A stretch of DNA of 64,000 nucleotides from Candidatus Saccharimonadales bacterium (GTDB taxonomy: Bacteria; Patescibacteriota; Saccharimonadia; Saccharimonadales; Saccharimonadaceae), in NCBI GenBank assembly GCA_035247945.1, contig DATFHX010000019.1, forward strand, positions 3,808 to 67,807, given 5' to 3'. Positions within the stretch are counted from its first letter, which is position 1, and the number at the start of each line of letters is the position of its first letter. The notes under the pieces are model-generated. The model saw only the letters and a list, made by a program, of their open reading frames with translations. It was not told the DNA's origin and did no database searches. A program made the position numbers and the translations under genes. Positions 6,972 to 60,016 of the stretch are shown here, piece after piece.

Positions 6972-7155
6972 CGTAAAAAATTCCTCAAAAAATTATTCGA
7001 AGAAACGGCAATTTATAGATGTATCGCCCGTCTTCCCTGCCCGTCTCATGCAGCGAATCCGTAGACGATGAATGATCCTATACGCGAGGGACGCTTAACC
7101 TAAAGTCAGTGAGTATCACGCGGAATTAATTCCTATTATACCTCTAGTGTCGCGT

Positions 7156-7195
7156 AAAAGAAAACTGCCACCAGCCGGAATGTCCGGCTGGTGGC
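7156..7195 (-). terminator. Rho-independent terminator after 7214..7588
   Basis: Perfect 12-bp stem gccaccagccgg/ccggctggtggc (7167-7195), followed on the minus strand by ttttctttt. Confidence 0.65.
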
Positions 7196-7213
7196 TTCAC
7201 AATGAGGCGGCCA

Positions 7214-7588
7214 CTACTTCAAGGACGCCGCCCACTCCTGGAACAATCGGTCCAGGGCGACTCCGTACTGCTTGGAGAAGTGGGGATACAGGCACGGCTG
7301 GGCTTCGAGCAGCGACTTGACGCTGATCGTCCATCCATGCTTGATCTCCGTCGGCGTCAGCTTCTCCAGCTTTCCCGACGGCCACACCTTTCGAGGGGAC
7401 GCCAGGCATCGGATGTTCAGCGTGACACCGCACTCCGGCGACTTCAGGTCCGGCGCGATGGTACCTGCGAGCAGGTTCCAAAGCCTTGTCGCCACCGATT
7501 CACGGTATCCGTGCTCGACCGCGAACGCCACCAGGTCCGCCTGCACGACGAACCCCTTGGGAGCCGTCGGAACTTTCCGCTTGGGCAT
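7214..7588 (-). CDS. Hypothetical protein, member 1 of a local 3-paralog family (GC-rich islet)
   Basis: 124 aa. High GC3. Shares ..DLV.FA.E......A.RLWNLL.. and ..SLKSLL.......G..LDRL...W.. with 8101..8427. Own AT-rich promoter region. Confidence 0.6.
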   Translation of the reverse strand: MPKRKVPTAPKGFVVQADLVAFAVEHGYRESVATRLWNLLAGTIAPDLKSPECGVTLNIRCLASPRKVWPSGKLEKLTPTEIKHGWTISVKSLLEAQPCLYPHFSKQYGVALDRLFQEWAASLK

Positions 7589-7610
7589 TACATGCCCACC
7601 CTTCTTCTCG

Positions 7611-7635
7611 GGTACTGTGCGTTACATACAGTACC
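7611..7635. promoter_or_regulatory. Inverted repeat GGTACTGT-N9-ACAGTACC (candidate operator) just upstream of 7214..7588
   Basis: Perfect 8-bp arms, read directly. Lies between the AT-rich putative promoter (7636-7665) and the SD/start at 7588. Confidence 0.4.
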
Positions 7636-7676
7636 ATGTTTTTATAAATATAACAAATAATGGCTCGGATACTTTT

Positions 7677-7710
7677 CCTTGGAGTGACGCCTTTTGGCGC
7701 CACTCCAAGG
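7677..7710 (-). terminator. GC-rich hairpin downstream of 7715..8098 (no U-tract)
   Basis: ccttggagtgacgcc-tttt-ggcgccactccaagg, 14 bp with one A.C mismatch. Confidence 0.5.
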
Positions 7711-7714
7711 GCCG

Positions 7715-8098
7715 TTACGCGCGCGGATCGCGGAGATACTGCAGCCAGAGATGAAACAGCGACCACATATCCTCACTGTGGCCAAACAGACTGTACTGCC
7801 ACCGCTTGGAGTCTAGTGGCAGCCTGGCAAGCGCCTGCCGGTCCAGCGCAACACCTTCTCGCTGAATGTACGGCGGTATGGGGTTGACACTCCCTGTGAG
7901 TGCGTAGCCGGATTCAGCAGACACAGCATCCACGCGCCCCATGCCGTTGTTGATCGTGTATCGATGCAGGTCCTCGGTCATGATCTTCCAGAGCTTTTGA
8001 ATGGTGCGCTGGTTGTTCAGATGCCTCATCTCCGGAACTCGACGCGCCAGCTCCCCAGCGAACTGACGTAGGTCAGACTCTTTGACGTACTTTGTCAC
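7715..8098 (-). CDS. Hypothetical protein, divergent member 2 of the local paralog family (GC-rich islet)
   Basis: 127 aa. GTG start 2 nt after the upstream stop, with GGAAGG SD inside the upstream gene. Motifs SDLRQFAGE...KLWKIM and GVALDRQ echo the paralogs. Confidence 0.55.
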   Translation of the reverse strand: MTKYVKESDLRQFAGELARRVPEMRHLNNQRTIQKLWKIMTEDLHRYTINNGMGRVDAVSAESGYALTGSVNPIPPYIQREGVALDRQALARLPLDSKRWQYSLFGHSEDMWSLFHLWLQYLRDPRA

Positions 8099-8100
8099 GA

Positions 8101-8427
8101 CTATCGCCTTCCGTTCTTGAGCATTTTACTCCTCAGCCATGCTTTCAGGAGCCGATCAATGGTATCCCCATACCCAGGGATACAACCAGGCCCGACCGAA
8201 CGAAGCCTCAACAGACTCTTCAGAGACCCCCGCGAAATAGCACGTTCACCCGGAACCACGCTTGAATGAAATACAAGCACTTCTCGATTAAGCCGATGCT
8301 TGAGATGCGCATCGAGCTCACCAAGAAGATTCCAAAGGCGATATGCAGCTTCGCGCGAGAACCGCCCTTCGCATGCAAATCGCACGAGATCACTTCGCTC
8401 CATCCACACTTCCGCCTCTTGCGGCAT
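8101..8427 (-). CDS. Hypothetical protein, member 3 of the local paralog family (GC-rich islet)
   Basis: The ORF is open to 8457. ATG at 8427 is preceded by GAGGAG. Motifs SDLVRFACEGRFSREAAYRLWNLLGE and GSLKSLLRL...GDTIDRLLKAWL. Confidence 0.6.
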   Translation of the reverse strand: MPQEAEVWMERSDLVRFACEGRFSREAAYRLWNLLGELDAHLKHRLNREVLVFHSSVVPGERAISRGSLKSLLRLRSVGPGCIPGYGDTIDRLLKAWLRSKMLKNGRR

Positions 8428-8518
8428 GCTACACTCCTCGCGTGCGAACAAGTTCATTATATCAGATCACCCTCTAGAAAATCCGTCAGCTATTTGTTAT
8501 AATCTCCAGAGTACATGT

Positions 8519-8595
8519 GGCAGCGTAGCTCAGTCGGTTAGAGCGTAGGACTCATAAGCCTAAGGTCACTGGTTCGATCCCAGTCGCTGCTACCA
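8519..8595 (+). tRNA. tRNA-Met (CAT), elongator type
   Basis: Cloverleaf folded by hand: GGCAGCG/CGCTGCT acceptor, GCTC/GAGC D-stem, loop CTCATAA, ACTGG/CCAGT T-arm with TTCGATC, CCA encoded. No initiator signatures. T-arm and acceptor resemble classical elongator tRNA-Met. TATAAT at 8497-8502. Confidence 0.88.
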
Positions 8596-8602
8596 TGAAA
8601 AT

Positions 8603-8661: not shown

Positions 8662-11181
8662 TTATTCGATGCTTCTTTTCCTTACTGCAAGAACAGTTGC
8701 TGCACCAAACATACTAAGTGCGGCTATTAAGAATGCGCCCGTGCTTTGGCCAGTATCAGCAAGCGTTCCGCCAGTCGATCGAGCAGCTGGAACCGCTAGA
8801 CCTGCAGGGTCAGAAATTGTACCGTTTACAATGCCATCAGCATCCAGGTTGCCGCCATCTGTAATATCAAAACTTGTTTTTGTTAATGATTGGCCGCCCA
8901 TAGATAAGCTCTCGACGGCTGCCCCATCTATATTAAAGTACGTCTGATTACTAGGGTTGTATTTACGGAGCATAAAGTTAGCCTGAACTCCGTAGTAGTA
9001 CTGTCTTACAGGTGATGTAAACCCTATAGACCCGCCACACGTTGTTTTAAAGTTCATAAGGCCCACAGGATAGTCATAACTCACATCGCTTACCGCATCG
9101 CTCGATTCTGCCTGCATGCTTGCTGTGTTAATTTGGCAGGAAGGGTCTAGTTCTAGCACCGCATACTTGCCCGTAATACTATTAACAAAACTTGCAACGT
9201 TCATCTGAACACTATCCTGAATGCCGTCGCCGTTTGCATCACCTCCGTTCGGCGCAGCGTCTTCGATGGTATTACTAACACCATCATTATCAGAATCGGC
9301 GATGGTTGCAAACGTACCTATCGAACCGGCCGACTCACCGGCAGGGCCGTTTACCACAAGTTGGTATTCATACGTCGTATCCTGAGTAAGACCAGTAAGG
9401 TTTTGATCGTAAGAACTTGGGAAATTAAGTGGTTGAGTTGGTGTGGTTTGCCACGTCGTAGTTCCCTGTTTACGGTACCTAAAGAAAGCTGTTCGACCCG
9501 TAGAATCGGCGGCGTTGCCCGACGATGCTATGGCATTACTAAATTCAGAAGTATTACCCGCAACATCTGTTGCCGTAGCAGCAAGCGACCAACCTGTCGG
9601 CAATGCACCCCCGCTAATCTTTAACCAATCCAGGGCGCTTCCATGCAACGAAGCAGTCGTGAAGGTAACATTATCTGCAGAACCCGTAGTAGGGGTTGGG
9701 CCGAATGTCACATTCCCGTCGCCGTCGGTTGTAAAGCTGGTGCTGCCTATCCATATCTGCCCTTCGCCGTATCCAGAAGGATCCGCTGTTTGGCTAGCAT
9801 AATAATCCATAGTGAATGCCTGGTTAGGTAGTCCATTGTATGACCCCTCAACCAAAGTCCCAGCTGCAGTTTGAGTAAGAACAGGGAAATTAATAATCGT
9901 ATTTGGACCTGCATCAGGATCTTTGGTGTCATTAGCCGTTACGCCGTTATTACCGAGGTCAATCCCCAAACTGTTATTGTTATAGATGCTATTCTGACGT
10001 ATTGTAATGCGACTTGGAACGGTAGGGTCTGTAGCCGCGACAACACCCTTGCTCCCGGCTGAGCCACTTGTGATTGTATTAGCTTGAATAATAAACGGCG
10101 TCTGAACAACGGCCGAAAGTGCCGGCGGCCCTGCAGTAGCCGCCCTGGTTGCAGCAGCACCAGCGGCAAAAATCCCGGCAGTGCTACTATCTTTGATCTC
10201 GTTGCCCTGAATAGTTACTCCGCTAGACCTACTGGCATAAATCCCGTAGGCGCCATTAGCTATTTTATTATTACGAATAATTGCGCCCGGCATACCAGTG
10301 TCGGCATTAGTATAGGCACAAGAAATCTGAATGTTTGCCCCCGCTCCAGTTCCAGTTCCACCATTCAAATTAGGTCGCGGCAGAGTACCCGTGGGGTCAA
10401 GACCAAAATAATTACCCTCTATTATCCAGTTGTTGGTGGTGGGTGCAGTGGTAATGAAAATGTTATTACTTGCTATACCATAGCTTTTATTGCTCCCAAT
10501 AACATTACCCTGGCCAGGGTTAGGGCCACCAATACGAACATTTTGCGAAAACGCGCTATTGGTACACCCACCAACACCAGCATTGTTTCCATTTGCAGTG
10601 CCGTCCAGATTAATGCCTATAAAGTTGGATTGCAGTGTAAATCCACCCGTACATACAAACTGGCCATTATACGCAACTCGCACCTGGCTAAACGCCGAAT
10701 AGTTTTTAGTGATACCACCGGTTATAGACAGCCCTTTTACGGTCGATCCAACACCCGACGGATTAAAGATAGCCGTAGCCGTCCCCGATTGAGTCGGAAG
10801 ACTTGCCCCGTCCACCTGAACAGTCAAGGTTAACGGAAACTGGCTACAGTCGCTACCTGGCTGGCTACAACCATCAATAATGACTGCATTCGACCCATCC
10901 ATTCCAGTGCCAAGTGAAGAACCATCAGTACTAGAATATGGCGCTAGCGGCGAGATAAGATGTGTGCCACCGCCAGGAATGTTGAAGGTGACCGTGTCAA
11001 TGCCTGCATTATTATTAGAATCAATTAAAGCTTGACGTAAAGATCCAGCACCACTGTTATTTGTATTTATTACGGTAAACGTGGCGGCACTTGCCGTCTG
11101 GGGTACCGCAAAAGTTACGACGCACGCAGCAAACACGACACATAGGCTTAGCCCTTTAAGAATTGTCTTAGCCCTTATCAT
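8662..11181 (-). CDS. Large wall-anchored surface protein: parallel beta-helix region, FN3-like segment, Asp-rich Ca-binding-like segment, LPXTG-type anchor
   Basis: 839 aa. Signal peptide ...PQTASA|ATF. Starts FTVINTNNSGAGSLRQALIDSN (CSLREA-like beta-helix lead-in). G/N-rich repeats. DSDNDGVSNTIEDAAPNGGDANGDGIQD. C-terminus LADTG + hydrophobic helix + RKRSIE. Confidence 0.85.
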   Translation of the reverse strand: MIRAKTILKGLSLCVVFAACVVTFAVPQTASAATFTVINTNNSGAGSLRQALIDSNNNAGIDTVTFNIPGGGTHLISPLAPYSSTDGSSLGTGMDGSNAVIIDGCSQPGSDCSQFPLTLTVQVDGASLPTQSGTATAIFNPSGVGSTVKGLSITGGITKNYSAFSQVRVAYNGQFVCTGGFTLQSNFIGINLDGTANGNNAGVGGCTNSAFSQNVRIGGPNPGQGNVIGSNKSYGIASNNIFITTAPTTNNWIIEGNYFGLDPTGTLPRPNLNGGTGTGAGANIQISCAYTNADTGMPGAIIRNNKIANGAYGIYASRSSGVTIQGNEIKDSSTAGIFAAGAAATRAATAGPPALSAVVQTPFIIQANTITSGSAGSKGVVAATDPTVPSRITIRQNSIYNNNSLGIDLGNNGVTANDTKDPDAGPNTIINFPVLTQTAAGTLVEGSYNGLPNQAFTMDYYASQTADPSGYGEGQIWIGSTSFTTDGDGNVTFGPTPTTGSADNVTFTTASLHGSALDWLKISGGALPTGWSLAATATDVAGNTSEFSNAIASSGNAADSTGRTAFFRYRKQGTTTWQTTPTQPLNFPSSYDQNLTGLTQDTTYEYQLVVNGPAGESAGSIGTFATIADSDNDGVSNTIEDAAPNGGDANGDGIQDSVQMNVASFVNSITGKYAVLELDPSCQINTASMQAESSDAVSDVSYDYPVGLMNFKTTCGGSIGFTSPVRQYYYGVQANFMLRKYNPSNQTYFNIDGAAVESLSMGGQSLTKTSFDITDGGNLDADGIVNGTISDPAGLAVPAARSTGGTLADTGQSTGAFLIAALSMFGAATVLAVRKRSIE

Positions 11182-11418
11182 CTTACCCCCACACTGCTTT
11201 CTAGAAGCGTTAATGGTTTTATTGTAGATTATTTTTTACGGCTTCACAATGTTGACATTGTTATGATTTTGAATGGAAAAGTATGATCACAAGGCTCGTT
11301 TTCGACGAACCATGAATCCGCCAATCCCTACGGCCGCACGTAGAACAGTGACCAGTCTACCAAGATTTAACAGATCATCTTCTGGGCGATCTTTTACTTA
11401 ACAGATATAATAAAGTCT

Positions 11419-11958
11419 ATGAACACCTGGAAACGTATCGAGCCTACAGTCGTCAATAAAGTCGGATGGCGCACAGTCGTCACGAAAACATTTATAATGC
11501 CTAACGGCCAAGAAGCAAGCTTCGATACATTTGGACCTGAGAAGCAACAGTTTGCCGCTATTATCGGCTTAACACCTGAAAACAAAGTTATTATCGCTCG
11601 ACAGTTCCGCGTAGGCCCAGAGGCTATCATGGAAGAACTACCTGGTGGATTTGTCGACGAAGGCGAAGATCATGAAGCAGCGGCACTTCGAGAGTTCCAG
11701 GAAGAAACTGGGTATACTGCCGGAGATGTTACGTATCTTGGGAGCTATAGCAAAGACACCTATATGAATGCTCTGTGGCATGTCTATTTCGCTACAGGAT
11801 GCGTACCTTCCGGCACGCAAACATTAGAGGATGAAGAGCATATTGAAATTGATCTCATTTCAATCGACCAGCTTATCCACAACGCGAAGACGAATAAGAT
11901 GACCGATGCTGTAGCGGTATTAATGGCCTACGATACGTTATTGAGTCTTAGTAAGTAA
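11419..11958 (+). CDS. NUDIX hydrolase (ADP-ribose pyrophosphatase-like)
   Basis: 179 aa. Nudix box GGFVDEGEDHEAAALREFQEETGY. Confidence 0.9.
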   Translation: MNTWKRIEPTVVNKVGWRTVVTKTFIMPNGQEASFDTFGPEKQQFAAIIGLTPENKVIIARQFRVGPEAIMEELPGGFVDEGEDHEAAALREFQEETGYTAGDVTYLGSYSKDTYMNALWHVYFATGCVPSGTQTLEDEEHIEIDLISIDQLIHNAKTNKMTDAVAVLMAYDTLLSLSK

Positions 11959-12023
11959 CTGCATCTGGAATCGAAACGAATATCCCCCATCTATCGATGA
12001 GAGGTATTTCAAAGACTGCTTTT

Positions 12024-14534
12024 CTACACTATTCGTTTTCGACGAAGGACAAGGCCACCAATGCCCATGGCAGCAAACAGCGTGACAGGTAAGACGTAAT
12101 TCATAAGATTCTGACCGGTAGAAGCAAGCGTATCTGGGTCCGAGGATGCCGGCGATTGAGGCGTAGAGGTAATCTGAGTTATTACGGCACAGTCAGTATT
12201 AAAGTTAGAATCTGCCGGATTCGTTATCGCAGGGTTAGGACAATTCATAGACCCTGTAATGGTGTTAACGAGCGCCTTATTAGCAAGGTGGTCACTTTGG
12301 TTTACAGTAGCACCATACGTTAGCGTAGCGGTTTTACCTGCAGCAAGATCGCCCGTCCAGATGAGTGATGGAGCGTTATATGTGAATGCACCACTTGTCG
12401 CATTTGCATCGTCGTTATAGCTAGCATCGTCAATAACATCGGAAAGGGTATCATCAACCGTAAGGTTTGTGAGGTCTACGGCACCCGTGTTCGTTATTGT
12501 GACGACATAATTGACCGCATCACCAGGCAGTACCGAGCTAGGCGATAGTGTTGTCTTCTGCGCCGTCCAAGCCGATACCGCTGTGCTCGTTACACAGTTT
12601 GCCTTATATCCAGGCGCACTCGAGTCAAAGATTGGCGTCAATGGACAATCGGCTGAGACAAGCGCATTATTAAGAACTGCATCATTAAGGTTGCTTGCCC
12701 CGTTCACCTTAACTGAGTACGTCACTGTCACGCTGTCCCCTGCGCCACCACTTGCAGCTAGATTTCCATTCCATATGATACGCTTACTTACCGGGTTATA
12801 GGTAAGTACACCCGTGGAAGCGGAGGCATTATTACCATACACCGCATCGTCGAGCACTTCGCTGAGATCGTCAGCGACCGCAACGTTAGAAGCTCCCGTG
12901 CCCCCAATATTAGTAATGACAAACTGGTAGTTTACCGTATCACCAGCTTTAGGATTAGTTGGACTTACTAATGTTTTTTGACTCGTCAGTACTGGTAGTG
13001 GAGTTGTAGTTCGGCATTCTGGATCAATCGCCGGAGAAGCGGTACAGTTCGACTGCGGTCCGGTTCCAACAATCCCATTGTTCAGTTTACCGTCGCCAGT
13101 AACTGGAGAATTCATTGTAAACGAATAGGTAATGGTTGCCGTCTGGCCAACATTTAGATTTCCACCCCACGATATCTGGTTACTTCCGTTCCAAGCGGGC
13201 GTTCCGATCGTTGCACTCACATCATTATTGTACGTGGCATCATCAATGACATTACTCAGGTCATCGGTAAAAGTTAACCCTGTTAAGTTAGTCGTTCCCT
13301 GATTTTCAACGGTTACTGTGTAGGTGAATGTCTGACCCGGAGTAACAGCTGTCACGACGGGATTAACAGTCTTACGGTAGTGTACTTTTGTGAGCGTAGT
13401 TGTAAACGTATTCGTGGATCCAGTTGTCTCCTGAAGCCCATCTCTTCCCTGCCAGCGTACAACTGCCAGGAACTCATACTGGGTGCCCGGAGCGAGACCA
13501 TTGACATTCGCGCTAAATGATCCCGCTGCCGTAACAGGCTGCGGTGAGGTTTGGGAGTAAGGGCCAGTTGATCCCGCCACCCTATACCGGTAAAAGACAT
13601 TCGCGTCTGTAAAATCTCCGAGTGTGCCCAGCGTGCCATTTAGTGTTGCAGAGTTGTCTGCGATGTTAGTGGCCGTGTTCGTTGTTACTTGCGGTGCCAT
13701 AGGGGCATCGTTGTAGATCTTCACGTCACTAATAGTTGCCAGCGGCGCATGTTCCCTCGTATCCTGGCCGATGTAGGTATTGGCTGTCGGCAGACTCATC
13801 GTTGTACCACTGTAATTAATCGGGAAATTCGGATCTTCAACACCATTTATATAGAGGTGAAGCTTCCCTCCGTCGGCGACTTGTTCAATGTGTGTCCATT
13901 GACCAACCGGTATTACTGCCGCAGAGTCGGTTAATGGAGCAAAGCTACCATTAGAGTTCCGGTGGTGTGGACGGATATGTCCCGTGTTATTTACATAGAT
14001 CATCCATGCCCAGTTCGCTGCAGACGAATTACGCCCTACCAGGTTTGCCCATGTTCCACTGGTCCCGACATATCCAGGTTTAAACTTAACCCACAGTGAC
14101 ACAGTGTAATTGTCCATCTGATCCAGAGCTGGACTGTTTCCTAGATTAACAGTATTCGCTGCCGTGGCTGTTGTACCGCTCCCGTCGAAATCGAGCGCAA
14201 AAGGTGTCGTCCCATCGTGACCAGGTGATACCCAAGAGGGACTACCCGTACCCGTGCCTCGAATAATCGTGCCGTTATTGCCGTTACCAGAGGAGTCGGC
14301 TGCCGTCGTGCCCGTACCTTCATCAAGTTTCCACTGACCGATAAGTCCGGATGCTGCGTATGCGAATGATTTAGTTGTAAGAATTGCAAGTATCGGTACG
14401 GCTAGGACAAGCAGCGCAAGGTAAAGCAGATGCTTTTTAGCAGATACTCCAGTACGATATAGCCGATACGGTTTTCTTTTTATTTGCATAGTTACTAAAT
14501 TAATCATACCATAAGCATTTCTTTTGCGACTCAT
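12024..14534 (-). CDS. Large wall-anchored surface protein: LamG/concanavalin-like domain, FN3-like segment, three DUF11-type repeats, LPXTG-type anchor
   Basis: 836 aa. LDEGTGTTAADSSGNGNNGT is typical of Laminin_G_3. Three repeats of the form G.T..Y...(V/I)TN.G...(L/V)T..(D/V)DLS.V(I/L)DDA.Y. C-terminus LASTG + TM + RRKRIV. Confidence 0.85.
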   Translation of the reverse strand: MSRKRNAYGMINLVTMQIKRKPYRLYRTGVSAKKHLLYLALLVLAVPILAILTTKSFAYAASGLIGQWKLDEGTGTTAADSSGNGNNGTIIRGTGTGSPSWVSPGHDGTTPFALDFDGSGTTATAANTVNLGNSPALDQMDNYTVSLWVKFKPGYVGTSGTWANLVGRNSSAANWAWMIYVNNTGHIRPHHRNSNGSFAPLTDSAAVIPVGQWTHIEQVADGGKLHLYINGVEDPNFPINYSGTTMSLPTANTYIGQDTREHAPLATISDVKIYNDAPMAPQVTTNTATNIADNSATLNGTLGTLGDFTDANVFYRYRVAGSTGPYSQTSPQPVTAAGSFSANVNGLAPGTQYEFLAVVRWQGRDGLQETTGSTNTFTTTLTKVHYRKTVNPVVTAVTPGQTFTYTVTVENQGTTNLTGLTFTDDLSNVIDDATYNNDVSATIGTPAWNGSNQISWGGNLNVGQTATITYSFTMNSPVTGDGKLNNGIVGTGPQSNCTASPAIDPECRTTTPLPVLTSQKTLVSPTNPKAGDTVNYQFVITNIGGTGASNVAVADDLSEVLDDAVYGNNASASTGVLTYNPVSKRIIWNGNLAASGGAGDSVTVTYSVKVNGASNLNDAVLNNALVSADCPLTPIFDSSAPGYKANCVTSTAVSAWTAQKTTLSPSSVLPGDAVNYVVTITNTGAVDLTNLTVDDTLSDVIDDASYNDDANATSGAFTYNAPSLIWTGDLAAGKTATLTYGATVNQSDHLANKALVNTITGSMNCPNPAITNPADSNFNTDCAVITQITSTPQSPASSDPDTLASTGQNLMNYVLPVTLFAAMGIGGLVLRRKRIV

Positions 14535-14651
14535 TTAGCTCTAGATGGAGGATCCTGTCTTGATAGAGCCGATTTTCTGTCAGTAACAACCTTGGAGGAT
14601 TATTATCCACTTTTTAATCAAAAGTAGTTTTGTGGATATGACGATATCTTT

Positions 14652-15806
14652 TTACTGAGCGCGTCCCACTCTCTTAACTATAACTAATGCTACTCCCTCG
14701 ACACCGAGAGCTACTGCTAAGCCAGTATATATCCCCTGATTCACACCTGTTGCTGGGAGTGTCGGTACATCCGAGGCTGGCGACGGAGTGTTATCACTTG
14801 GCGTAGGATCTATGGATGGAATAATATCTGAGATAACACCAAGCTTATTTGCATTACTTTCCGTAAACCAGATTGTATTATTTGGTCCGGCAGCAATTAG
14901 AAAGGGTGCGCTGCCTGCCGTTGGAATATCATATTCCGTAAAGACGCCCGCAGGCGTGATCATGCCAATTTTATTGGTCCCACGTTCTGTGAACCAGACG
15001 TTCCCATCCGCACCAAGTGCAGTACCATGGGGATCACTTGTGCTCCCAGATGGAACAGTATACTCGGTAATTACACCCGCAGTCGTAATTTTGCTGACAC
15101 GGCCGCCCTCACCGGCGTACCAAAGATTCCCGTCCGATCCAGTGGTAATATCGTAGGGTCGACGAGTTGGCGTACCGAGGATTGGATATTCCGTGACTAC
15201 TCCGCTTGTAGTAATCATTCCTATATTTGCGCCGGTATATTCCGTAAACCATATATTACTATCTGGTCCTACAGTAATTCCATAGGGAGAGCTCGCTGCT
15301 GTCGTAACAGGGAAAAGTGTGATCACGCCAGTAGGTGTAATACGTCCGATCTGGTCACCTCCGATATGCGTAAACCAGATATTTCCATCGGGGCCTGTGA
15401 TAAGTTCGTGTGGATTTGATCCTCCAGTGATACTGTATTCAGTTATTACACCCGTTGGTGTTATAACACCGATCTTATTTGCACCGTATTCGGTAAACCA
15501 AAGATTTCCATCTGGTCCGACAGCTATATCGTTTGGTTGACTATTCGGTGTCGGAACCGTGTATTCATTAAGTACCGCGCCAGAAGGAGACATGACACCA
15601 ATTTTATTTGCGGAAAATTCCGTAAACCACATGTTACCATCCGGGCCAAGCACTACTTCGTGCGGAACGCTCGCTGCGGTCGTAATGTCATATTCTGCTA
15701 TTGAAACAGCGGCGAATGTTGGCTGAGCCGCTACGAGTGCTACAAGAAAGGTTGCAGTAGCTCCCATACTAGTGCGTTTTAGTTTTAGCAGAGTATTCTT
15801 AATCAT
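14652..15806 (-). CDS. Wall-anchored beta-propeller protein with Vgb/streptogramin-lyase-like repeats
   Basis: 384 aa. Signal peptide. About seven repeats of about 42 aa (GPDGN.WFTE...NKIG.I(T/S)P.G...EY..P). C-terminus LPATG + TM + KRVGRAQ. Confidence 0.8.
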   Translation of the reverse strand: MIKNTLLKLKRTSMGATATFLVALVAAQPTFAAVSIAEYDITTAASVPHEVVLGPDGNMWFTEFSANKIGVMSPSGAVLNEYTVPTPNSQPNDIAVGPDGNLWFTEYGANKIGVITPTGVITEYSITGGSNPHELITGPDGNIWFTHIGGDQIGRITPTGVITLFPVTTAASSPYGITVGPDSNIWFTEYTGANIGMITTSGVVTEYPILGTPTRRPYDITTGSDGNLWYAGEGGRVSKITTAGVITEYTVPSGSTSDPHGTALGADGNVWFTERGTNKIGMITPAGVFTEYDIPTAGSAPFLIAAGPNNTIWFTESNANKLGVISDIIPSIDPTPSDNTPSPASDVPTLPATGVNQGIYTGLAVALGVEGVALVIVKRVGRAQ

Positions 15807-15935
15807 GGCAATCCTTAGGATGATACTTACGCTTTTGCCTTATTCTATCACATACGCGCTTCGATAGAGATTCTCTTTTTACAACAAAAGCGATCAGGTG
15901 GTACCATAGTCATAGATAGCAGAAAGGATATATAA

Positions 15936-16142
15936 ATGCCATCAAACGAAAATAGAAAAACGATTAAGATAGTCGAACAGGGTCCGTGGGGATTCTTTCA
16001 TTTCCTCGCCTACGTAGGTGCAGCGATTTACTTCATTTCACATACCAATGGCGGATTCTGGGAAGTTGTTCTCGCACTTCTAAAAGCAGTCGTCTGGCCT
16101 GTGTACGTCATCTTCCACGTACTTCGTCTAATTGGAGCCTAG
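15936..16142 (+). CDS. Small membrane protein, unknown function
   Basis: 68 aa with two hydrophobic helices, followed by a strong terminator. Confidence 0.55.
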   Translation: MPSNENRKTIKIVEQGPWGFFHFLAYVGAAIYFISHTNGGFWEVVLALLKAVVWPVYVIFHVLRLIGA

Positions 16143-16159
16143 AAGAATAAACGAACTAA

Positions 16160-16195
16160 GCCCCGCTCACGCGAAACGCGTGAGCGGGGCTTTTT
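16160..16195. terminator. Strong rho-independent terminator between convergent genes
   Basis: gccccgctcacgcg-aaa-cgcgtgagcggggc, followed by ttttt. Confidence 0.85.
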
Positions 16196-16196
16196 G

Positions 16197-16580
16197 TCAG
16201 CGGTTGTCGGGGCGACGGCGCCTTGTATCCAGTGTGAATCCAAAACTTCGTTCGTCTTCCGGAATGATCTCGCTTATAGGCAGGCCCGGCTCCATATAGA
16301 TATCCGCGCCCAACTCCGTTGCGATCTCCTTCAGGCTTGCGTCGAGCTTATCTTCCGGCCAGGCACCGGAGAACTCGACGAACCAGTCGTTACGGCCCTC
16401 GATGTGGTGAATCGTGAAGCGGCCGTGCTTCTGCACACCCTTGGCAAGAATCGCACGAAGACGATCCCTGAAGGAGATGACATGCGCTGGATTGACGAAC
16501 ACGAGGCTCACGAACTGCACACGCCCCGTTCGCCGCGTTGTCTTCATGACATGGATCGGGGGTGCCCCTTGCGGTGACAT
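16197..16580 (-). CDS. Hypothetical protein (GC-rich islet, orphan)
   Basis: High GC3 in this frame only. GGAG lies 8 nt upstream of ATG at 16580 (ORF open to 16586). The opposite-strand ORF 16194..16577 is a high-GC shadow. Confidence 0.55.
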   Translation of the reverse strand: MSPQGAPPIHVMKTTRRTGRVQFVSLVFVNPAHVISFRDRLRAILAKGVQKHGRFTIHHIEGRNDWFVEFSGAWPEDKLDASLKEIATELGADIYMEPGLPISEIIPEDERSFGFTLDTRRRRPDNR

Positions 16581-16636
16581 ACTCACGCTCCGTTTTGACG
16601 AGTACTGACTAATATATTATAACATTTATTCCGTCT

Positions 16637-17017
16637 TTATCGAATAATAAGCTCAACAATATAGAGTGCAGCCGCAATACGAACACCGTCTATGAGCGTT
16701 AACAGAAAGACTGGTCCACCAGATACCTGGTAGTCTGCATAGGTAGAAAGATACGAAGCGCAGAGGAGTAGGAGTGGTACGGCTACAAGTGGAAGAAATG
16801 GTACGCTCGCCCAGTGTGCAAGCAGCATCAACGCCACTCCCTGAAAGAGCTTCTCGCCTATCGCTGCCCAGAAAGGAAACGCTTTTGACGGACGTGATAT
16901 TTGACTAAAATGCTTGTCATTCCACCGCTTAAGAACGACAACGTACATAAGCACCCCACTTAGGAACAACCATGCCGCTGATGCAAGTACCGCAAGCGTA
17001 TCATAATAGATGAACAT
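16637..17017 (-). CDS. Membrane protein, unknown function
   Basis: ATG at 17017 is preceded by AAGGAGG (ORF open to 17080). Four hydrophobic helices. Native GC. Confidence 0.65.
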   Translation of the reverse strand: MFIYYDTLAVLASAAWLFLSGVLMYVVVLKRWNDKHFSQISRPSKAFPFWAAIGEKLFQGVALMLLAHWASVPFLPLVAVPLLLLCASYLSTYADYQVSGGPVFLLTLIDGVRIAAALYIVELIIR

Positions 17018-17137
17018 ATCCCTCCTTATATACAAAAAAGATCCGGAACTTCTTCCGGGTCTTTTTACCTCTTTAGGCATATTCTATCACATCTAATACG
17101 CTAGGGTCTTAGAAGAAAATTATCTCAAAGTACGTCT

Positions 17138-17171
17138 GGCGAACCTCTGCGAGTAACCGCAGAGGTTCGCC
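17138..17171 (-). terminator. GC-rich hairpin after the methyltransferase gene (no U-tract)
   Basis: Perfect 14-bp stem ggcgaacctctgcg/cgcagaggttcgcc with a 6-nt loop. Confidence 0.5.
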
Positions 17172-17182
17172 GTCCGTATGGA

Positions 17183-18427: not shown

Positions 18428-18772
18428 GAAGGACCACCTCCTCGTCTTTCTTGATCCACTTTACGGACAAAAAATATTATACAAGGATTTAAGTGAGATA
18501 GATAGACTATTCGACGTCTATATCATCGGGCAACTGGCTGTGACGCTGCTCAACAAAATTACGAAGCTCTTCGATTGAACGTGGTCGATTCCAAGAATCG
18601 AGAAGTGTGTCATTTTCCATTTTTTGATGCCCTTTTGCGTTTTTTGTTTTTATGATCTTATAAATCTATTTAAGCATAATCTATATAAAAATGCAATAGT
18701 ATTATTGGCTGTTGTTTCTTACATAAAAAGAGCGTATGCTGATCCTTATACAGGTCAACCGCGGAGGTAAGC

Positions 18773-18910
18773 GTGACAACTCAACCATCTCAGCCAAAGC
18801 AGCCGCCGAAACCCGACACTCATCCGTGCACCTACGCCAAGGGTGGCGTTTGTCGCACATGGAAAAAGTGCGTGAGGACGTACTGCCGAGGCGCCGAGGG
18901 CGAGGACTGA
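18773..18910 (+). CDS. 45-aa Pro/Lys-rich peptide with four cysteines (micro-ORF)
   Basis: GGAGGT lies 6 nt upstream of GTG. Translation MTTQPSQPKQPPKPDTHPCTYAKGGVCRTWKKCVRTYCRGAEGED. TGA is followed 12 nt later by a perfect terminator. The competing 68-aa frame runs into the terminator stem. Confidence 0.45.
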   Translation: MTTQPSQPKQPPKPDTHPCTYAKGGVCRTWKKCVRTYCRGAEGED

Positions 18911-18922
18911 CGCATCCCTGTT

Positions 18923-18964
18923 GCCCTATGGCTGCATATTGATGCAGCCATAGGGCGGTTTTTT
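18923..18964 (+). terminator. Rho-independent terminator
   Basis: 15-bp perfect stem gccctatggctgcat/atgcagccatagggc, followed by ggtttttt. Confidence 0.85.
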
Positions 18965-18980
18965 AAATTGAGCATTGCTT

Positions 18981-21786: not shown

Positions 21787-21787
21787 T

Positions 21788-22072
21788 ATGACCGACCTCA
21801 TTCACATCATAAAAAGAGATGGCGAGCGACAAAGTGAGACCTTTGATGAGACGAAACTCTTTCGCAGCATACAAGCCGCCTGCCTCAGTGTCCGCAGTCC
21901 TGAGGGAGAAGCCGAGATGATTGCCGAACGTGTCTGCCGTGCGGTTACACAGTGGCTCACTACCCGCCCCGAAGTAACCAGTAGCGATCTACGCCGAAAA
22001 GCGACCGAAACCCTGATGATCCACCACCCTGAAGCCGCCTATCTATATAAACACCACAGACTTGTCATATAA
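21788..22072 (+). CDS. Stand-alone ATP-cone domain protein
   Basis: MTDLIHIIKRDGERQSETFDETKLFRSIQAACLSV... is the ATP-cone pattern (V.KRDG....F...KI..SI). ATG at 21788. Confidence 0.72.
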   Translation: MTDLIHIIKRDGERQSETFDETKLFRSIQAACLSVRSPEGEAEMIAERVCRAVTQWLTTRPEVTSSDLRRKATETLMIHHPEAAYLYKHHRLVI

Positions 22073-22083
22073 AGGAGAACACC

Positions 22084-50904: not shown

Positions 50905-51408
50905 GTGAAGACTGCATTTCTGCGGGCTGGCAACATCAAGGAGCTTGGCCGAATCTATGGACAGGTCGACGAACCTGGAAGTCCTCTAAAAGCGTTTCCG
51001 GATGCGGTTAAGGACTCGATCCATCTAAGGAAGCCTGTCCTCTGCATTCCCGAAGGTGATGTCTCACTCTTCACGTTTCAAGCGCGCTCAATCTATACCA
51101 CAAAAAGCCCTGAGAGAGGGACACTGTGGACCTGTATCATTGAGGTCTTCAGTGGCGACTCACCCTTCCAGCTCGCGTGCACCCGAGATATTCCGGTTGT
51201 CTACATGAGGAGTAACGGCATTGCCGAACTTCACTGTGAGGATCGCCTCGTCGCAGAGGTATCCAAGGTGAGCAAGCGTGGCGTCACCTTGGAGTTCCTG
51301 GGTGGCGAGACCAGACAGTTTCAGTCCATCGAAGGCGCTCATGTCGGTAAAGTCCTCACTTTGCGGAGGACCGTCAAAGATCGCCTGATCGTCCTGCAGG
51401 ACGTGTGA
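50905..51408 (+). CDS. Hypothetical protein (GC-elevated orphan)
   Basis: 167 aa. GTG start 5 nt after GGAGG. Followed by a GC-rich hairpin. Confidence 0.55.
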   Translation: MKTAFLRAGNIKELGRIYGQVDEPGSPLKAFPDAVKDSIHLRKPVLCIPEGDVSLFTFQARSIYTTKSPERGTLWTCIIEVFSGDSPFQLACTRDIPVVYMRSNGIAELHCEDRLVAEVSKVSKRGVTLEFLGGETRQFQSIEGAHVGKVLTLRRTVKDRLIVLQDV

Positions 51409-51413
51409 GGTAC

Positions 51414-51441
51414 CTCGGCGGCCCCTAAAATGGCCGCCGAG
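51414..51441. terminator. GC-rich hairpin between convergent genes (no U-tract)
   Basis: ctcggcggcc-cctaaaat-ggccgccgag. Confidence 0.5.
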
Positions 51442-52026: not shown

Positions 52027-52320
52027 TTACTGCCAGGCGGCTCCACTGATATGACGCCGAAAAAGCGTAAGTGTGGCAGCACGCGTCATGACACCGAGCG
52101 TGTCGAGCGCATCGAAACTCAAGCTCCACGTCGGACCCTTCTCATCCGCCTTGGGTCGTACTTCAACCTCCCAGTAGAAGACGCGGCGCTGCTCAAATGG
52201 ATCGTCGGGGACGCACACGTGCATGATGACACCAGCCGAATGGCCAAGTGCGGCTACAACCTCACGGCCCGCCAACTGAGCATTCAGCTCACCACGAAGT
52301 GCTTTAACTCCAAACAGCAT
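52027..52320 (-). CDS. Hypothetical 97-aa protein, tandem paralog A
   Basis: Shares AL.GEL...L.GREV...H..G.I..VC.PD....RVF.WEVEV.P..D..G.W..SF..LD.L...RAA.LT.FRRH.S...W with 52434..52724. Confidence 0.6.
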   Translation of the reverse strand: MLFGVKALRGELNAQLAGREVVAALGHSAGVIMHVCVPDDPFEQRRVFYWEVEVRPKADEKGPTWSLSFDALDTLGVMTRAATLTLFRRHISGAAWQ

Positions 52321-52398
52321 CCTCTACACCCTTCGCTTGGTCAAACCCTACCTATGCACTATACCATTCCTTCATTTTAGATACGTTACCGAATGAAA

Positions 52399-52430
52399 TA
52401 TGTGCCTCGGCATTACTACCGAGGCACATA
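52399..52430 (-). terminator. Hairpin terminator after 52434..52724
   Basis: 12-bp perfect stem tatgtgcctcgg/ccgaggcacata. Confidence 0.6.
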
Positions 52431-52433
52431 GGA

Positions 52434-52724
52434 CTACTCCCAAACAACATCACTGAGGTGACGTCGGAAGATCGTAAGTATTGCCGCTCGCCTTATGATG
52501 TCCAGCCTGTCGAGTTCACTGAAGCTCATACCCCACGTGCCCTGGCCATCATCTGGAGTAGGCTGTACTTCCACCTCCCAGAAAAAGACACGGGCTTGAT
52601 ATTGCTGGACGTCCGGCGGGCATACGCGGATGATCTCTCCTGTTGGATGAAGTGGTGACTGTGCCACTTCACGCCCCACCAGTAGTCCACTCAGTTCCCC
52701 ACAGAGTGCATCAATCACAGTCAT
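52434..52724 (-). CDS. Hypothetical 96-aa protein, tandem paralog B
   Basis: See paralog A. AAGGA SD 5 nt upstream of the ATG. Confidence 0.6.
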   Translation of the reverse strand: MTVIDALCGELSGLLVGREVAQSPLHPTGEIIRVCPPDVQQYQARVFFWEVEVQPTPDDGQGTWGMSFSELDRLDIIRRAAILTIFRRHLSDVVWE

Positions 52725-58299: not shown

Positions 58300-58326
58300 A
58301 AAACTCCTTTTTCCTCGCATAAAAAA

Positions 58327-58352
58327 GAGACCCGAGCTCTCGCTCGGGTCTC
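58327..58352. terminator. Hairpin flanked by A- and T-runs just upstream of the 56164.. gene start
   Basis: gagacccgagc-tctc-gctcgggtctc. On the minus strand it is followed by tttttt and then the ATG. Confidence 0.45.
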
Positions 58353-58552
58353 CAAAAAACCTCTACTTCGATAATAGAACACTCATTGCCTGCGCGCAAC
58401 GCCCAATTTCAATGCATTATTTTCTCGCCACCTCAGTAGCTTCTCGAGACTAAAAATAGCAATGGCTTGCTATCTCGTAGAACCACGTCGTTAAGCTAGC
58501 ACCTTTACTCTCTGGCGTAATACCCCATAGCCAACTTGCCGCTCTTTACAGA

Positions 58553-59074
58553 TTACTCTGCAATTTGTCTGTTAGTGGCGCGAAGATGCTTTTTGAAATG
58601 TCTCATAATCTCCGGACCAAATAGTGTGCCATCCTCAGCAAGTGCATTGGCTAATACTTCATCCCAACCCCACATCCTTTGCCTCATCTTCCTACTCCAC
58701 GACCGACGATTAAAAGAGCTTACGTACATCATTCCAATACCTTCAACATTCCCAATCGCTGCCGGGCCGATACTTCCAATATCAGACCAATAAATGTGCT
58801 TATGAAAAACACCTAGGAACGTTACGTGTACGCCAGCCGTATCAATTTGGTAGTAGACGAGTCTCGGTATGGAAAACAGAAGAGAGAAAATTATTAAAGC
58901 GGGAAAAGCGAGTGATCCATAAAGCATTACAGTCCTAACTGTTTCGTTTCGCAGCCCCGAGGCATATAGAACAGTCGTAACAAACATGAGGAGTATAGGG
59001 AGCAGCGTTGATAGTTGTTTTAATGTATCTTTGGAATTCAGATAGTACTTTGGGGAGGAAGATTTAACGGCCAT
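58553..59074 (-). CDS. Hypothetical membrane protein
   Basis: 173 aa. Two N-terminal TM followed by a soluble domain. Confidence 0.6.
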   Translation of the reverse strand: MAVKSSSPKYYLNSKDTLKQLSTLLPILLMFVTTVLYASGLRNETVRTVMLYGSLAFPALIIFSLLFSIPRLVYYQIDTAGVHVTFLGVFHKHIYWSDIGSIGPAAIGNVEGIGMMYVSSFNRRSWSRKMRQRMWGWDEVLANALAEDGTLFGPEIMRHFKKHLRATNRQIAE

Positions 59075-59145
59075 TTCTTATATCATAACAGAGTGCGCGA
59101 TCTCCGAAGAGAGTCCACGATACTATGTATACAACCCTAGCATAG

Positions 59146-59180
59146 AAAAAATCCTTAGCTAAGTTAACTAAGGATTTTTT
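59146..59180 (-). terminator. Terminator after tRNA-Asn
   Basis: atccttag/ctaaggat stem flanked by A6/T6 runs. Confidence 0.6.
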
Positions 59181-59182
59181 CA

Positions 59183-59257
59183 TGGCTCCGGCAGCTGGGC
59201 TCGAACCAGCGACCTAATCGTTAACAGCGATCCGCTCTACCACTGAGCTATGCCGGA
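59183..59257 (-). tRNA. tRNA-Asn (GTT)
   Basis: The reverse complement folds as TCCGGCA/TGCCGGA acceptor, GCTC/GAGC D-stem, loop CTGTTAA, GCTGG/CCAGC T-arm with TTCGAGC. CCA encoded. Confidence 0.92.
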
Positions 59258-59306
59258 ATACTGGGAGTATTATACACGTTTCTAGCGATTCCCGTCAAGG
59301 GGTACT

Positions 59307-59330
59307 GCTCGGCCGGTTTGCCGGCCGAGC
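59307..59330 (-). terminator. GC-rich hairpin after 59339..60016 (no U-tract)
   Basis: gctcggccgg-tttg-ccggccgagc. Confidence 0.55.
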
Positions 59331-59338
59331 GTCTCACA

Positions 59339-60016
59339 TCACACCTGGTAGTAGCCGCTCCCGTACGAAGCGACCTTGATCCGCTCAATCGGTTTACAGA
59401 CAAGGCTACCATTGGATGGGTCATAGAGGGTACAGTGACGGGAATCTTCTGGAATTGCCAGAAGGGTGTGCACCGTTCCACCTACTGCGAGTTCTGAACA
59501 GAAGACGAAACACCCGTCGAGGAGCATTCGCTTGAAATCGACTTGCGTTGCATATCCTTCCTGAATATCGATCTGTCCCTTGAACTGACGACGGATTTGT
59601 ATTTGTATACGCGCCGCCTCAACCAGGTCCGAAAAGAAATACGGAAGATCGAATTCGATCTCCACCTCAGTTCGCCCCATCTGCCTCCAGAACGCTTCGA
59701 CCTTTTTCAAGCCGTCGGGCCCGACGATCTCTTCGGGCCGGATTGGGGACTTCGCTTTCAGGTGAAGTCCATGCTCTAGAAGGAGCCTCATGTTGCCATA
59801 CTGCATGTCGGGCTGATATGCACGACGACCGATTCGCCTATCGAGGCTCAGTACTTGATTTCGCTCGATTTTACCGAGCATATAGAGAATCTGCGCCGTA
59901 CAGGCTGTTTCGCAGGCCATCGCATCCCACTGCACTAGTGGAAGTGGTGCTCGCATCGCTACACTACCATCCTCTCGTACGCTTTTGAGACATTCAGGAT
60001 TATAGAGGAGTATCAC
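59339..60016 (-). CDS. Papain-fold cysteine peptidase-like protein (C39-like domain), tentative
   Basis: Gln-x5-Cys in VQWDAMACETACTAQILYMLG, and His...Asp-Pro in GGTVHTLLAIPEDSRHCTLYDPSNG, echoing the C39/papain Q-C-H-D layout. GTG at 60016 overlaps the upstream TGA (GTGA). The alternative start is ATG at 59956. GC moderately elevated. Confidence 0.5.
   Translation of the reverse strand: MILLYNPECLKSVREDGSVAMRAPLPLVQWDAMACETACTAQILYMLGKIERNQVLSLDRRIGRRAYQPDMQYGNMRLLLEHGLHLKAKSPIRPEEIVGPDGLKKVEAFWRQMGRTEVEIEFDLPYFFSDLVEAARIQIQIRRQFKGQIDIQEGYATQVDFKRMLLDGCFVFCSELAVGGTVHTLLAIPEDSRHCTLYDPSNGSLVCKPIERIKVASYGSGYYQV

Follow-up and report, generated by a model that had tools for sequence, protein, structure and literature searches.

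GC-rich accessory genes, probably of long residence, and variable slots at clustered tRNA-Met genes in a soil Saccharimonadales chromosome

The sequence under study is a contig stretch of a soil 'Candidatus Saccharimonadales' metagenome-assembled genome (contig DATFHX010000019.1, positions 3,808 to 67,807, of assembly GCA_035247945.1). We refer to its full 64,000 nt as the window. We analysed a series of short GC-rich segments in this window, termed islets, together with the tRNA genes and the conserved genes around them. An earlier inspection of the letters alone, called the sequence-only reading below, had described the islets as a genome-wide mosaic with one islet beside every tRNA gene and had proposed that they were captured from a high-GC actinobacterial host. 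It had also suspected a Saccharibacteria-like lineage, and the origin of the contig bears this out. Exact sequence matches assign FtsH, MetK and several islet proteins to a third-party-annotated NCBI genome of this name (accessions HJP813xx, locus tags VJ841_) and also to an ENA contig of 128,949 nt. The gene content fits Saccharibacteria as well: the window encodes FtsH, TilS, type IV pilin-like proteins, DinB, large DUF11 surface proteins, a Mur ligase, AspRS, a short MetK and a subtilase.

The GC content of the window is 48.5%, with a standard deviation of 4.7% across 200-nt windows. We called segments strongly GC-rich if they exceeded the median by 0.10 or more over 300 nt. There are four of them (7113-8101, 16149-16610, 17098-18499 and 23736-24269), and two weaker segments were found at 51140-51458 and 51982-52336. 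For single genes we used the GC content at third codon positions (GC3), for which 32 long genes of the window gave a background of 0.450 ± 0.039. The strong islets hold the following genes and hairpins, listed with their immediate partners:

7167..7195, minus strand: terminator hairpin with U-tract, 3' of ISL1a; 13-bp stem, then AGTTTTCTTT
7214..7588, minus strand: ISL1a, 124-aa orphan with an RLWNLL motif; GC 0.627, GC3 0.83, z 6.5
7677..7710, minus strand: GC-rich hairpin without U-tract, 3' of ISL1b; -32.6 kcal/mol, z -6.5
7715..8098, minus strand: ISL1b, 127 aa, distant member of the ISL1 family; GC3 0.69, z 4.0
8101..8457, minus strand: ISL1c, 118-aa member of the ISL1 family with ordinary composition; GC3 0.53, z 1.3, no outlier
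16158..16192, minus strand: 16-bp GC-rich hairpin, 3' of ISL2
16197..16586, minus strand: ISL2, 129-aa orphan and GC3 outlier; GC3 0.685, z 4.0
17138..17171, minus strand: GC-rich hairpin without U-tract, 3' of the CFA gene; -36.3 kcal/mol, z -5.2
17183..18427, minus strand: CFA synthase (cyclopropane-fatty-acyl-phospholipid synthase), 414 aa, the largest GC-rich islet; GC 0.623, GC3 0.79, z 7.3
23823..24194, plus strand: ISL5, 123 aa, the first of two cassette genes that occupy the slot 3' of tRNA-Met(b); GC3 0.86, z 7.0, the maximum of the window
24271..24699, plus strand: partner gene of ISL5, 142 aa, of native composition; GC 0.44, GC3 0.50

Clear GC3 outliers are five of the about 13 islet genes, namely ISL1a, ISL1b, ISL2, the CFA gene and ISL5 (GC3 0.69-0.86). 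The islets described from the letters are therefore real for these five genes (z 4-7), whereas the remainder are marginal or driven by amino-acid content. In the strong islets G-ending and C-ending codons are both enriched at 4-fold and 2-fold sites, as in high-GC genomes, and the codon usage of the five outliers is typical of a genome with ~60-65% GC. This agrees with the foreign type of codon usage that had been proposed. The stronger statement that codons end almost always in G or C holds for ISL1a, ISL5 and the CFA gene but not for the other islets. Translational selection was rejected as an explanation, as conserved core genes (e.g. o69, FtsH and AspRS) are not GC3-rich and NNG and NNC codons are both enriched.

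For the comparison with other species we used the locus of the pyridine-nucleotide-disulphide oxidoreductase gene (PyrRedox, 22084-23460) with 10-kb flanks from 80 Saccharibacteria species representatives; islets 7-9 lie outside this comparison, and at the ISL5, ISL2 and CFA sites the closest species compared shows 86% PyrRedox identity. The islet genes are all missing from the syntenic loci of the 80 species and are thus accessory, in line with the sequence-only reading. The description as a genome-wide mosaic did not survive the comparison: GC-rich segments account for 6.3% of the window and for a mean of 4.0% of the related loci, and 14 of 77 loci exceed the window. Many GC-rich segments are driven by amino-acid content. 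The Gly-rich, FAD-binding N-terminus of PyrRedox (22071-22401), which recurs in a cluster of 39 orthologous segments, scores as GC-rich through its Gly and Ala content, and this case is a caution for window-based GC scans. The long antisense open reading frames (ORFs) that had been noted in the islets are present and even misled the ENA gene calls, which annotate the antisense ORFs of the CFA gene (window 17195-18016, plus strand; L001 7791-8612) and of ISL5 (23790-24230, minus strand; L001 1577-2017). Gene prediction in this genome goes astray at GC-rich islets.

Because the sequence comes from a metagenome-assembled genome, we asked whether a chimeric assembly or contamination of the bin by a high-GC organism could have produced the islets. 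We find this scarcely credible. The islets are internal to the contig and their flanks are syntenic with the 80 Saccharibacteria; window positions 4652-25806 (21 kb) have a 100% identical counterpart in the independent ENA assembly; the junctions of islet 1 were found again in five contigs from other samples; and the shifts in GC fall at gene boundaries.

Islet 1 consists of three small genes in tandem, of which ISL1a and ISL1c are paralogous (E 5e-9). The ISL1 family has seven members among 5.8 billion proteins, all of them from this lineage or from unnamed contigs resembling the candidate phyla radiation (CPR). In the contigs from other samples islet 1 is located at the same place, adjoining a 90-aa gene and the genes for DinB, a pilin, TilS and FtsH. 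It is syntenic in L002-L005, which show ~84% nucleotide identity to the window, and in the more diverged L175 with ~70%. The GC-richness is retained in these relatives. The ISL1a orthologue in L002 has a GC3 of 0.81, and the ISL1b orthologues at the same position, 91% (L004) and 57% (L175) identical in amino acids, both have a GC3 of 0.66. Taken together the ISL1 genes show GC3 values of 0.81, 0.66 and 0.52 in L002/L004 and of 0.69, 0.63 and 0.66 in L175, compared to 0.39-0.47 in the flanks. At the same time the 4-fold sites of the flanking core genes are near saturation between the window and L175 (identity excess 0.13-0.24). The sequence-only reading, which had proposed capture from a host, had itself named conservation within the same lineage as an outcome that would speak against it, and since L002-L005 and L175 carry islet 1 this conservation is what we observed. 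Islet 1 is old within Saccharibacteria. The AlphaFold model of ISL1c shows a helix-helix-hairpin-helix arrangement (mean predicted confidence, pLDDT, of 74) and a likeness to winged-helix regulators that is only a hint; neither the model of ISL5 nor this one had a significant fold match in PDB (best E-values 1.1 and 0.83).

The CFA synthase is the sole islet product with a known family (PF02353, E 1.4e-80). Its CMAS domain is full-length (271 bits compared to a cut-off of 27; profile positions 3-272 of 273), it carries the S-adenosylmethionine-binding motif VLDVGSGWG and it matches the L. acidophilus enzyme (PDB 5z9o, E 1e-57, residues 52-407) and E. coli Cfa (PDB 6bqc, E 4e-51, residues 56-407), with which it shares the full-length two-domain architecture. 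Mycolate enzymes align to it only from ~residue 123. Judged from its sequence the protein is of the two-domain phospholipid type, as opposed to the single-domain mycolate enzymes. Unlike the known CFA synthases, it is at most 52% identical to any other member and its gene is, in Saccharibacteria, compositionally isolated from the genome. The value of 52% was the highest in a search of 5.8 billion proteins; named Actinomycetota come to 45-46% and Alphaproteobacteria to 38-44%. We determined the context of five of the closest homologues. The contigs of four belong to Saccharibacteria (core genes 65-88% identical to named Saccharibacteria loci), and the fifth, L089, gave no confident lineage assignment. 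One further contig from a metagenome scan (L096) has Saccharibacteria flanks and carries the CFA gene adjoining a tRNA-Met.

In all seven loci, including the window, the CFA gene is the lone GC-rich gene, with a GC content of 0.56-0.62 and a GC3 of 0.70-0.82 against a flank GC of 0.45-0.53. This is not a general property of cfa genes. As a control we used 47 other metagenomic CFA loci with distant homologues (34-44% identity) among the matches listed from the alignment scan, and in these the GC content of the gene equals that of its flanks (difference -0.001 ± 0.028, maximum 0.071). As a separate observation, L089 has the CFA gene beside other GC3-rich genes (0.60-0.76; positions 5621-11239), i.e. 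in a multi-gene GC-rich block and not in a single-gene islet.

Four syntenic Saccharibacteria genomes share the order RimK – DUF192 – o160 – tRNA-Lys – [variable] – CFA – [variable] – YebC – RuvC. Their CFA identities (60-81%) track the identities of DUF192 and o160 (62-89%), and the 4-fold sites are near saturation. The CFA synthase thus appears to be old within Saccharibacteria. The stretch from tRNA-Lys(UUU) to YebC in these genomes (L006, L007, L090 and L092) forms a second variable slot, 3' of the tRNA, in which the CFA gene has differing neighbours: CHAP, DUF347, glyoxalase and RNHCP genes and a truncated gene resembling aminoacyl-tRNA synthetases. In a neighbour-joining tree the CFA synthase of the window sits on a long, deep branch beside the Saccharibacteria CFA clade. 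The clade next to the latter holds Pseudonocardia and Nocardioidaceae, and the Alphaproteobacteria fall outside. This placement makes an ancient actinobacterial origin of the sequence possible, but lends no support to a recent one.

The results for islet 1 and the CFA gene bear directly on the first proposal, according to which the islets are recent, piecemeal captures from a high-GC actinobacterial host, made without an integrase at hot spots beside tRNA genes. The codon usage of high-GC type, the hairpins without U-tract after islet genes and the variable flanks of the tRNA-Met genes are consistent with it, as is the occurrence of named Actinomycetota among the CFA homologues in the clade adjoining that of Saccharibacteria. 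Gene transfer between Saccharimonadia and an actinobacterial host has moreover been reported elsewhere, using a criterion of >99% nucleotide identity (bioRxiv 10.64898/2026.09.16.751625). However, no actinobacterial donor emerged: the best CFA match is 52% identical and Actinomycetota reach only 45-46%, the nearest CFA relatives are Saccharibacteria, and named actinobacterial sequences are missing from the ISL1 and ISL5 families. Furthermore islet 1 is conserved in two diverged relatives, and GC-rich DNA is not enriched near tRNAs (see below). For islet 1 and the CFA gene this model is already contradicted, and for the islets as a whole we regard it as very unlikely. Horizontal gain of genes is documented in Saccharibacteria (PMC7427843, PMC8764695), and the low GC content of clade G6 has been attributed to transfer from low-GC streptococci (PMC8386444). 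The islets resemble the reported transfers in being accessory genes of foreign type, one of them metabolic, in a reduced episymbiont genome for which Actinomycetota are plausible partners; they differ in that the reported cases have close homologues or trees, while here there is no close donor and the genes are old within the lineage. GC-rich islets in an episymbiont of intermediate GC content are a tempting sign of gene flow from host to symbiont, and in this case the inference of both recency and donor fails once relatives are compared. A literature search found no paper on CFA synthase or on GC-rich islets in Saccharibacteria.

For ISL5 an exhaustive search of 1.84 billion representatives yielded 23 relatives, and only one of these has a readable context, on a 333-kb CPR-like contig (L093). 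It carries the same two-gene cassette far from any tRNA. The GC3 of its ISL5 homologue is ordinary (0.49) and that of the partner is low (0.28), so the contrast between the two genes is retained but the absolute level is different. In the structural model of ISL5 (pLDDT 70) the C-terminal beta domain reaches a pLDDT above 90. The N-terminal module (23823-23910; MDFMDAAAYIMYGVDTKAER) recurs with a different C-terminus in P0152 and P0158, and other members of the family have CxxC motifs in its place. Judging by these sequences the ISL5 family looks modular.

Considering all five outliers, we think it somewhat probable that the GC-rich accessory genes are ancient cassettes of foreign type which have since been inherited vertically or exchanged among Saccharibacteria. 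The window would then be an ordinary soil Saccharimonadales chromosome in which a class-wide backbone is broken by lineage-restricted accessory genes. ISL1a, ISL1b, ISL2, the CFA gene and ISL5 would be self-contained cassettes, consisting of one ORF each and usually followed by their own GC-rich hairpin. Most likely they were acquired horizontally, in the distant past, from a gene pool of higher GC content. The acquisition would predate the divergence of lineages whose DNA sequences are now 16-30% different, and any later exchange would have been confined to Saccharibacteria.

Several observations weigh against this explanation. No donor was identified for any islet, and the CFA tree was built by neighbour joining only, with the taxon name missing from most leaves. 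The composition itself is a further difficulty. Foreign DNA is said to ameliorate towards the composition of its new genome (Lawrence and Ochman 1997), and if the transfers are old, neutral amelioration should have removed most of the GC3 excess. Instead the GC content of the CFA gene is 0.56-0.62 in seven of seven loci whatever the GC content of the flanks, with synonymous sites near saturation. A simple relaxation estimate leaves ~0.37 of the initial GC3 excess per lineage and would predict a GC3 of at most ~0.62 for the CFA gene of L007, compared to an observed value of 0.755. For islet 1 we compared the window with L002. The 4-fold divergence of ISL1a and ISL1b is below that of the flanking core genes (identity excess 0.56-0.68 compared to 0.32-0.41), and the ISL1a protein diverges fast (69% amino-acid identity compared to 87-97% in the flanks). 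This low 4-fold divergence points to synonymous constraint or to later exchange. Finally ISL5 is GC-rich and its cassette partner is not, which is odd for a block from one donor.

Active maintenance of the composition is the main rival, because GC3 stays high past synonymous saturation. In this case GC-richness would be kept in certain accessory genes by one of two means: selection on synonymous sites, acting e.g. on the structure or stability of the mRNA, or GC-biased gene conversion (gBGC) at often-recombining loci, e.g. flexible slots and genes subject to diversifying selection. Amelioration and gBGC are the two frameworks that predict a change in the GC3 of foreign or recombining genes over time. 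The islets depart from simple amelioration in that their GC3 excess outlasts near-saturation, and gBGC, a published hypothesis for bacteria (PMC4450053), is not known to act at the scale of single genes in these organisms. Maintenance would account for the CFA gene, which is the lone GC-rich gene in all seven loci despite near-saturated 4-fold sites and a divergence congruent with its flanks, and whose excess is missing from the 47 control loci. It would also account for islet 1, with a GC3 excess of ~0.2-0.4 kept in three lineages and, in the pair of ISL1a and ISL1b, a reduced 4-fold divergence combined with a raised amino-acid divergence, and for the contrast between ISL5 and its partner that is preserved in L093. 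On the other hand, the polarised CFA changes suggest decay in the L006 lineage, with 15-17 changes from G or C to A or T against 2-4 in the opposite direction, and a balance in L092; these samples are small (40-160 sites). As the L006 lineage is losing GC, any constraint on the CFA gene is not universal. Slot cargo in other species is on average AT-richer than the core, which argues against a regional gBGC, and boundaries as sharp as the genes themselves are hard to obtain from conversion tracts. We consider maintenance as such rather unlikely.

A wider formulation is that the CFA gene, the ISL1 family and perhaps ISL5 have kept a gene-specific GC3 of ~0.2-0.4 above the genome through vertical descent far past saturation, either because their composition is actively maintained (by selection on synonymous sites or by gBGC at recombination-prone flexible loci) or because the slots were repeatedly refilled from co-diverging high-GC hosts. 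We put this forward as a tentative possibility. Repeated refilling is conceivable, and no donor for it is visible. In the former case composition would be actively maintained at the scale of single genes in a reduced episymbiont genome. The CFA gene and the ISL1 family are GC-rich in every lineage examined. This observation is relevant to the rate of amelioration of foreign DNA and to a possible role of selection or biased gene conversion in the genome composition of the CPR.

We next consider the position of the islets relative to the tRNA genes. ARAGORN and Rfam both call the four tRNA genes exactly where they had been read from the letters. These genes and the conserved genes used as landmarks are as follows:

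8519..8595, plus strand: tRNA-Met(CAU) 'a'
8662..19955: lineage-specific 11-kb block, 3' of tRNA-Met(a), GC-rich in part only
21070..23460, plus strand: backbone genes o238, ATP-cone protein and PyrRedox, in this order in 80 of 80 loci
23507..23584, plus strand: tRNA-Met(CAU) 'b', initiator type
24945..25415, minus strand: core gene o156, between tRNA-Met(b) and (c); at the same place in 54 of 80 loci
25447..25522, plus strand: tRNA-Met(CAU) 'c'
26080..26289, minus strand: core gene o69, end of a variable slot; 81-96% amino-acid identity in 39 loci
59183..59257, minus strand: tRNA-Asn(GUU)

The claim of an islet beside every tRNA gene failed. Within the window a permutation test of the association gave P values of 0.07-0.5 depending on the threshold, and tRNA-Met(b) alone retains an islet within 400 nt when the threshold is set to 0.60. 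Across the 80 loci a GC-rich segment lies within 400 nt of 10 out of 177 tRNAs, compared to an expectation of 16.4 ± 3.7.

The backbone reads tRNA-Met(a) … o238 – ATP-cone – PyrRedox – gap – tRNA-Met(b) – o156 – tRNA-Met(c) – gap – o69 – o209 – MFS – Mur, with o209 present in 37 loci. The distances between these genes vary strongly. From tRNA-Met(a) to o238 we found 0.4-2 kb in most relatives and 12.5 kb in the window; the gap between PyrRedox and o156 ranges from 113 to 9434 nt and that between o156 and o69 from 221 to 6557 nt. The variation is concentrated on the 3' flanks of the tRNAs: the 54 loci with tRNA-Met(b) gave median gaps of 59 nt (5') and 1067 nt (3'), and the 40 loci with tRNA-Met(c) gave 64 nt (5') and 2741 nt (3'). 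In 48 of the 54 loci tRNA-Met(b) has variable DNA at its 3' flank, and the same applies to tRNA-Met(c) in 32 of the 40. The same slot differs in gene content and length among relatives and the cargo families are diverse; the 144 slot ORFs of other species include ABC-2 transporters, aminotransferases, PRPP synthase, dehydrogenases and pilins. On average these ORFs are AT-richer than core genes (mean ΔGC3 -0.06), with only 3% above +0.1. The three clustered tRNA-Met genes mark class-wide hypervariable slots, mostly on their 3' side, and this defines a class-wide variable zone in Saccharibacteria. Since ISL5 with its partner occupies the slot 3' of tRNA-Met(b), ISL6 that 3' of tRNA-Met(c) and the block at 8.6-19.9 kb that of tRNA-Met(a), the idea of tRNA-side hot spots was right for the tRNA-Met cluster, whose flanks vary throughout the class, and wrong as regards GC-rich DNA, which shows no enrichment near tRNAs. 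Islet 1 and ISL9 are located on the 5' side of their tRNAs.

Two further loci show unusual cargo. Another Saccharimonadales species (L049, 7278-10531) has a 3-kb GC-rich block in the tRNA-Met(b) slot, with a histidyl-tRNA synthetase gene of GC3 0.85. In L076, L080 and L083-L088, one of which is labelled Candidatus Nanosynbacter, o156 and tRNA-Met(c) are separated by a single giant ORF of ~1700-1885 aa (~10.7-17.4 kb).

The variable 3' flanks might suggest that the islets are remnants of classical integrase islands at tRNA 3' ends, whose integrases and attachment (att) repeats have decayed. Variable DNA 3' of tRNA-Met(b) and (c) in most of the 54 and 40 loci fits such an origin. In L009-L088 tRNA-Met(b) lies on the plus strand beside PyrRedox in 10 of 54 loci and on the minus strand beside o156 in 44, and because the variable DNA stays on the 3' side of the tRNA in either orientation, tRNA and cargo seem to have been inverted together in some species. 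The remaining traces of such islands are missing, in agreement with the sequence-only reading. A Pfam search of ~56 ORFs from the window detected no integrase, recombinase or transposase, and no integrase family is among the 25 commonest Pfam families of the 144 slot ORFs. No tRNA-derived direct repeats were found either: blastn-short searches with each tRNA and its flanks returned chance matches of 12-14 nt, and a repeat search agrees. The asymmetry may instead reflect that the tRNA needs the core gene just upstream for its expression. Compared to classical tRNA-linked islands with an integrase and att duplication, the islets share the atypical composition and, in the case of ISL5, ISL6 and the 11-kb block, a location 3' of the tRNA, but they are of single-gene size, and islet 1 and ISL9 lie on the 5' side. 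We consider decayed integrase islands improbable.

A closer parallel is offered by the flexible, hypervariable genomic islands that reportedly lie beside tRNA genes in the streamlined bacterium Prochlorococcus (Coleman et al. 2006). The slots share with these islands the conserved core flanks, the tRNAs at the slot borders, the differing cargo with small orphans and, often, the lack of a resident integrase; the same core flanks recur across species here, and within one slot content and length differ among relatives. In contrast to the Prochlorococcus islands the slots are tiny (0.1-9 kb) and linked to three tRNA-Met genes that form a conserved cluster, some of their cargo is GC-richer and not AT-richer than the genome, and no phage-linked evidence was found. 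If the GC-rich genes are ancient cassettes, as we favour, the slot cargo is probably swapped without resident integrases. Two routes of turnover would be open to it, homologous recombination between the conserved flanks after DNA uptake and the action of integrases that have since been lost.

The window contains 14 perfect hairpins whose stem measures 10 bp or more, and eight of them are at the 3' ends of islets (P about 9e-5). As had been stated from the letters, those at 7677, 17138, 51414 and 59307 have no U-tract, and the one at 7167-7195 has one. Integron cassettes were considered and rejected: there is no integrase, and the 3' hairpins are perfect, mutually dissimilar and dispersed over 52 kb (no attC consensus model was run).

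The less pronounced islets and their accompanying features are as follows:

18773-18910, plus strand: ORF for a 45-aa cysteine-rich peptide ('islet 4') with a GGAGG ribosome-binding site; MTTQPSQPKQPPKPDTHPCTYAKGGVCRTWKKCVRTYCRGAEGED; then a terminator; GC3 0.65, z 2.4 (moderate)
18920-18965, plus strand: strong terminator with U-tract, 3' of the 45-aa ORF
25581..25934, minus strand: ISL6, 117 aa, lineage-specific, in the slot 3' of tRNA-Met(c); GC 0.537, GC3 0.44, no outlier, its GC being due to first codon positions (GC1 0.71)
50905..51441, plus strand: ISL7, 167-aa orphan with a GC-rich hairpin at 51414-51441 (z -5.9); GC3 0.62, z 3.1 (moderate)
52027..52724, minus strand: ISL8a and ISL8b, tandem paralogues of 97 and 96 aa, 49% identical (E 3e-32); GC3 0.58, z 2.1 (moderate) for ISL8a and 0.53, no outlier, for ISL8b
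59307..60016, minus strand: ISL9, 205-225 aa, with a 3' hairpin at 59307-59330; GC3 0.58, z 2.4 (moderate)

The composition of ISL1c, ISL6, ISL8 and ISL9 is normal scatter or a matter of amino-acid content. ISL5 and ISL6 are both absent from the 80 species loci. The orphan islet proteins that were scanned had no match in Pfam, PHROGs, NCBIfam or PADLOC, ISL2 included, and scans of viral contigs gave no relatives of ISL5, ISL1a or ISL2. ISL9 overlaps by 4 nt the stop codon of a gene with a LexA_DNA_bind domain (60013-60474), which suggests that the two form an operon (59339-60474). Its Cys and His residues might fit a peptidase, though no family or PDB match was obtained.

The 11-kb block (8662-19955) encodes, by Pfam, a beta-helix protein, a NUDIX protein, a DUF11 surface protein and a Vgb-lyase-like protein, and further ISL2, a membrane protein, the CFA synthase and an alpha/beta hydrolase. 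None of its genes was found in the 80 species loci. The 45-aa peptide ORF is unannotated and lies directly upstream of the hydrolase gene; an Rfam search of 18400-19000 at a permissive threshold returned only noise. The Vgb-lyase-like gene contains four diverged copies of a 75-nt unit (14852-15685), which are probably beta-propeller blades. A 22-nt direct repeat (15832-15853 and 17071-17092, 86% identical) brackets o68, ISL2 and the gene of a 147-aa membrane protein and may be due to chance or to similar 5' leaders. Outside the block, a 1287-aa ORF without Pfam domain (46003-49866) is located where the plus strand has a strong AT skew (+0.22).

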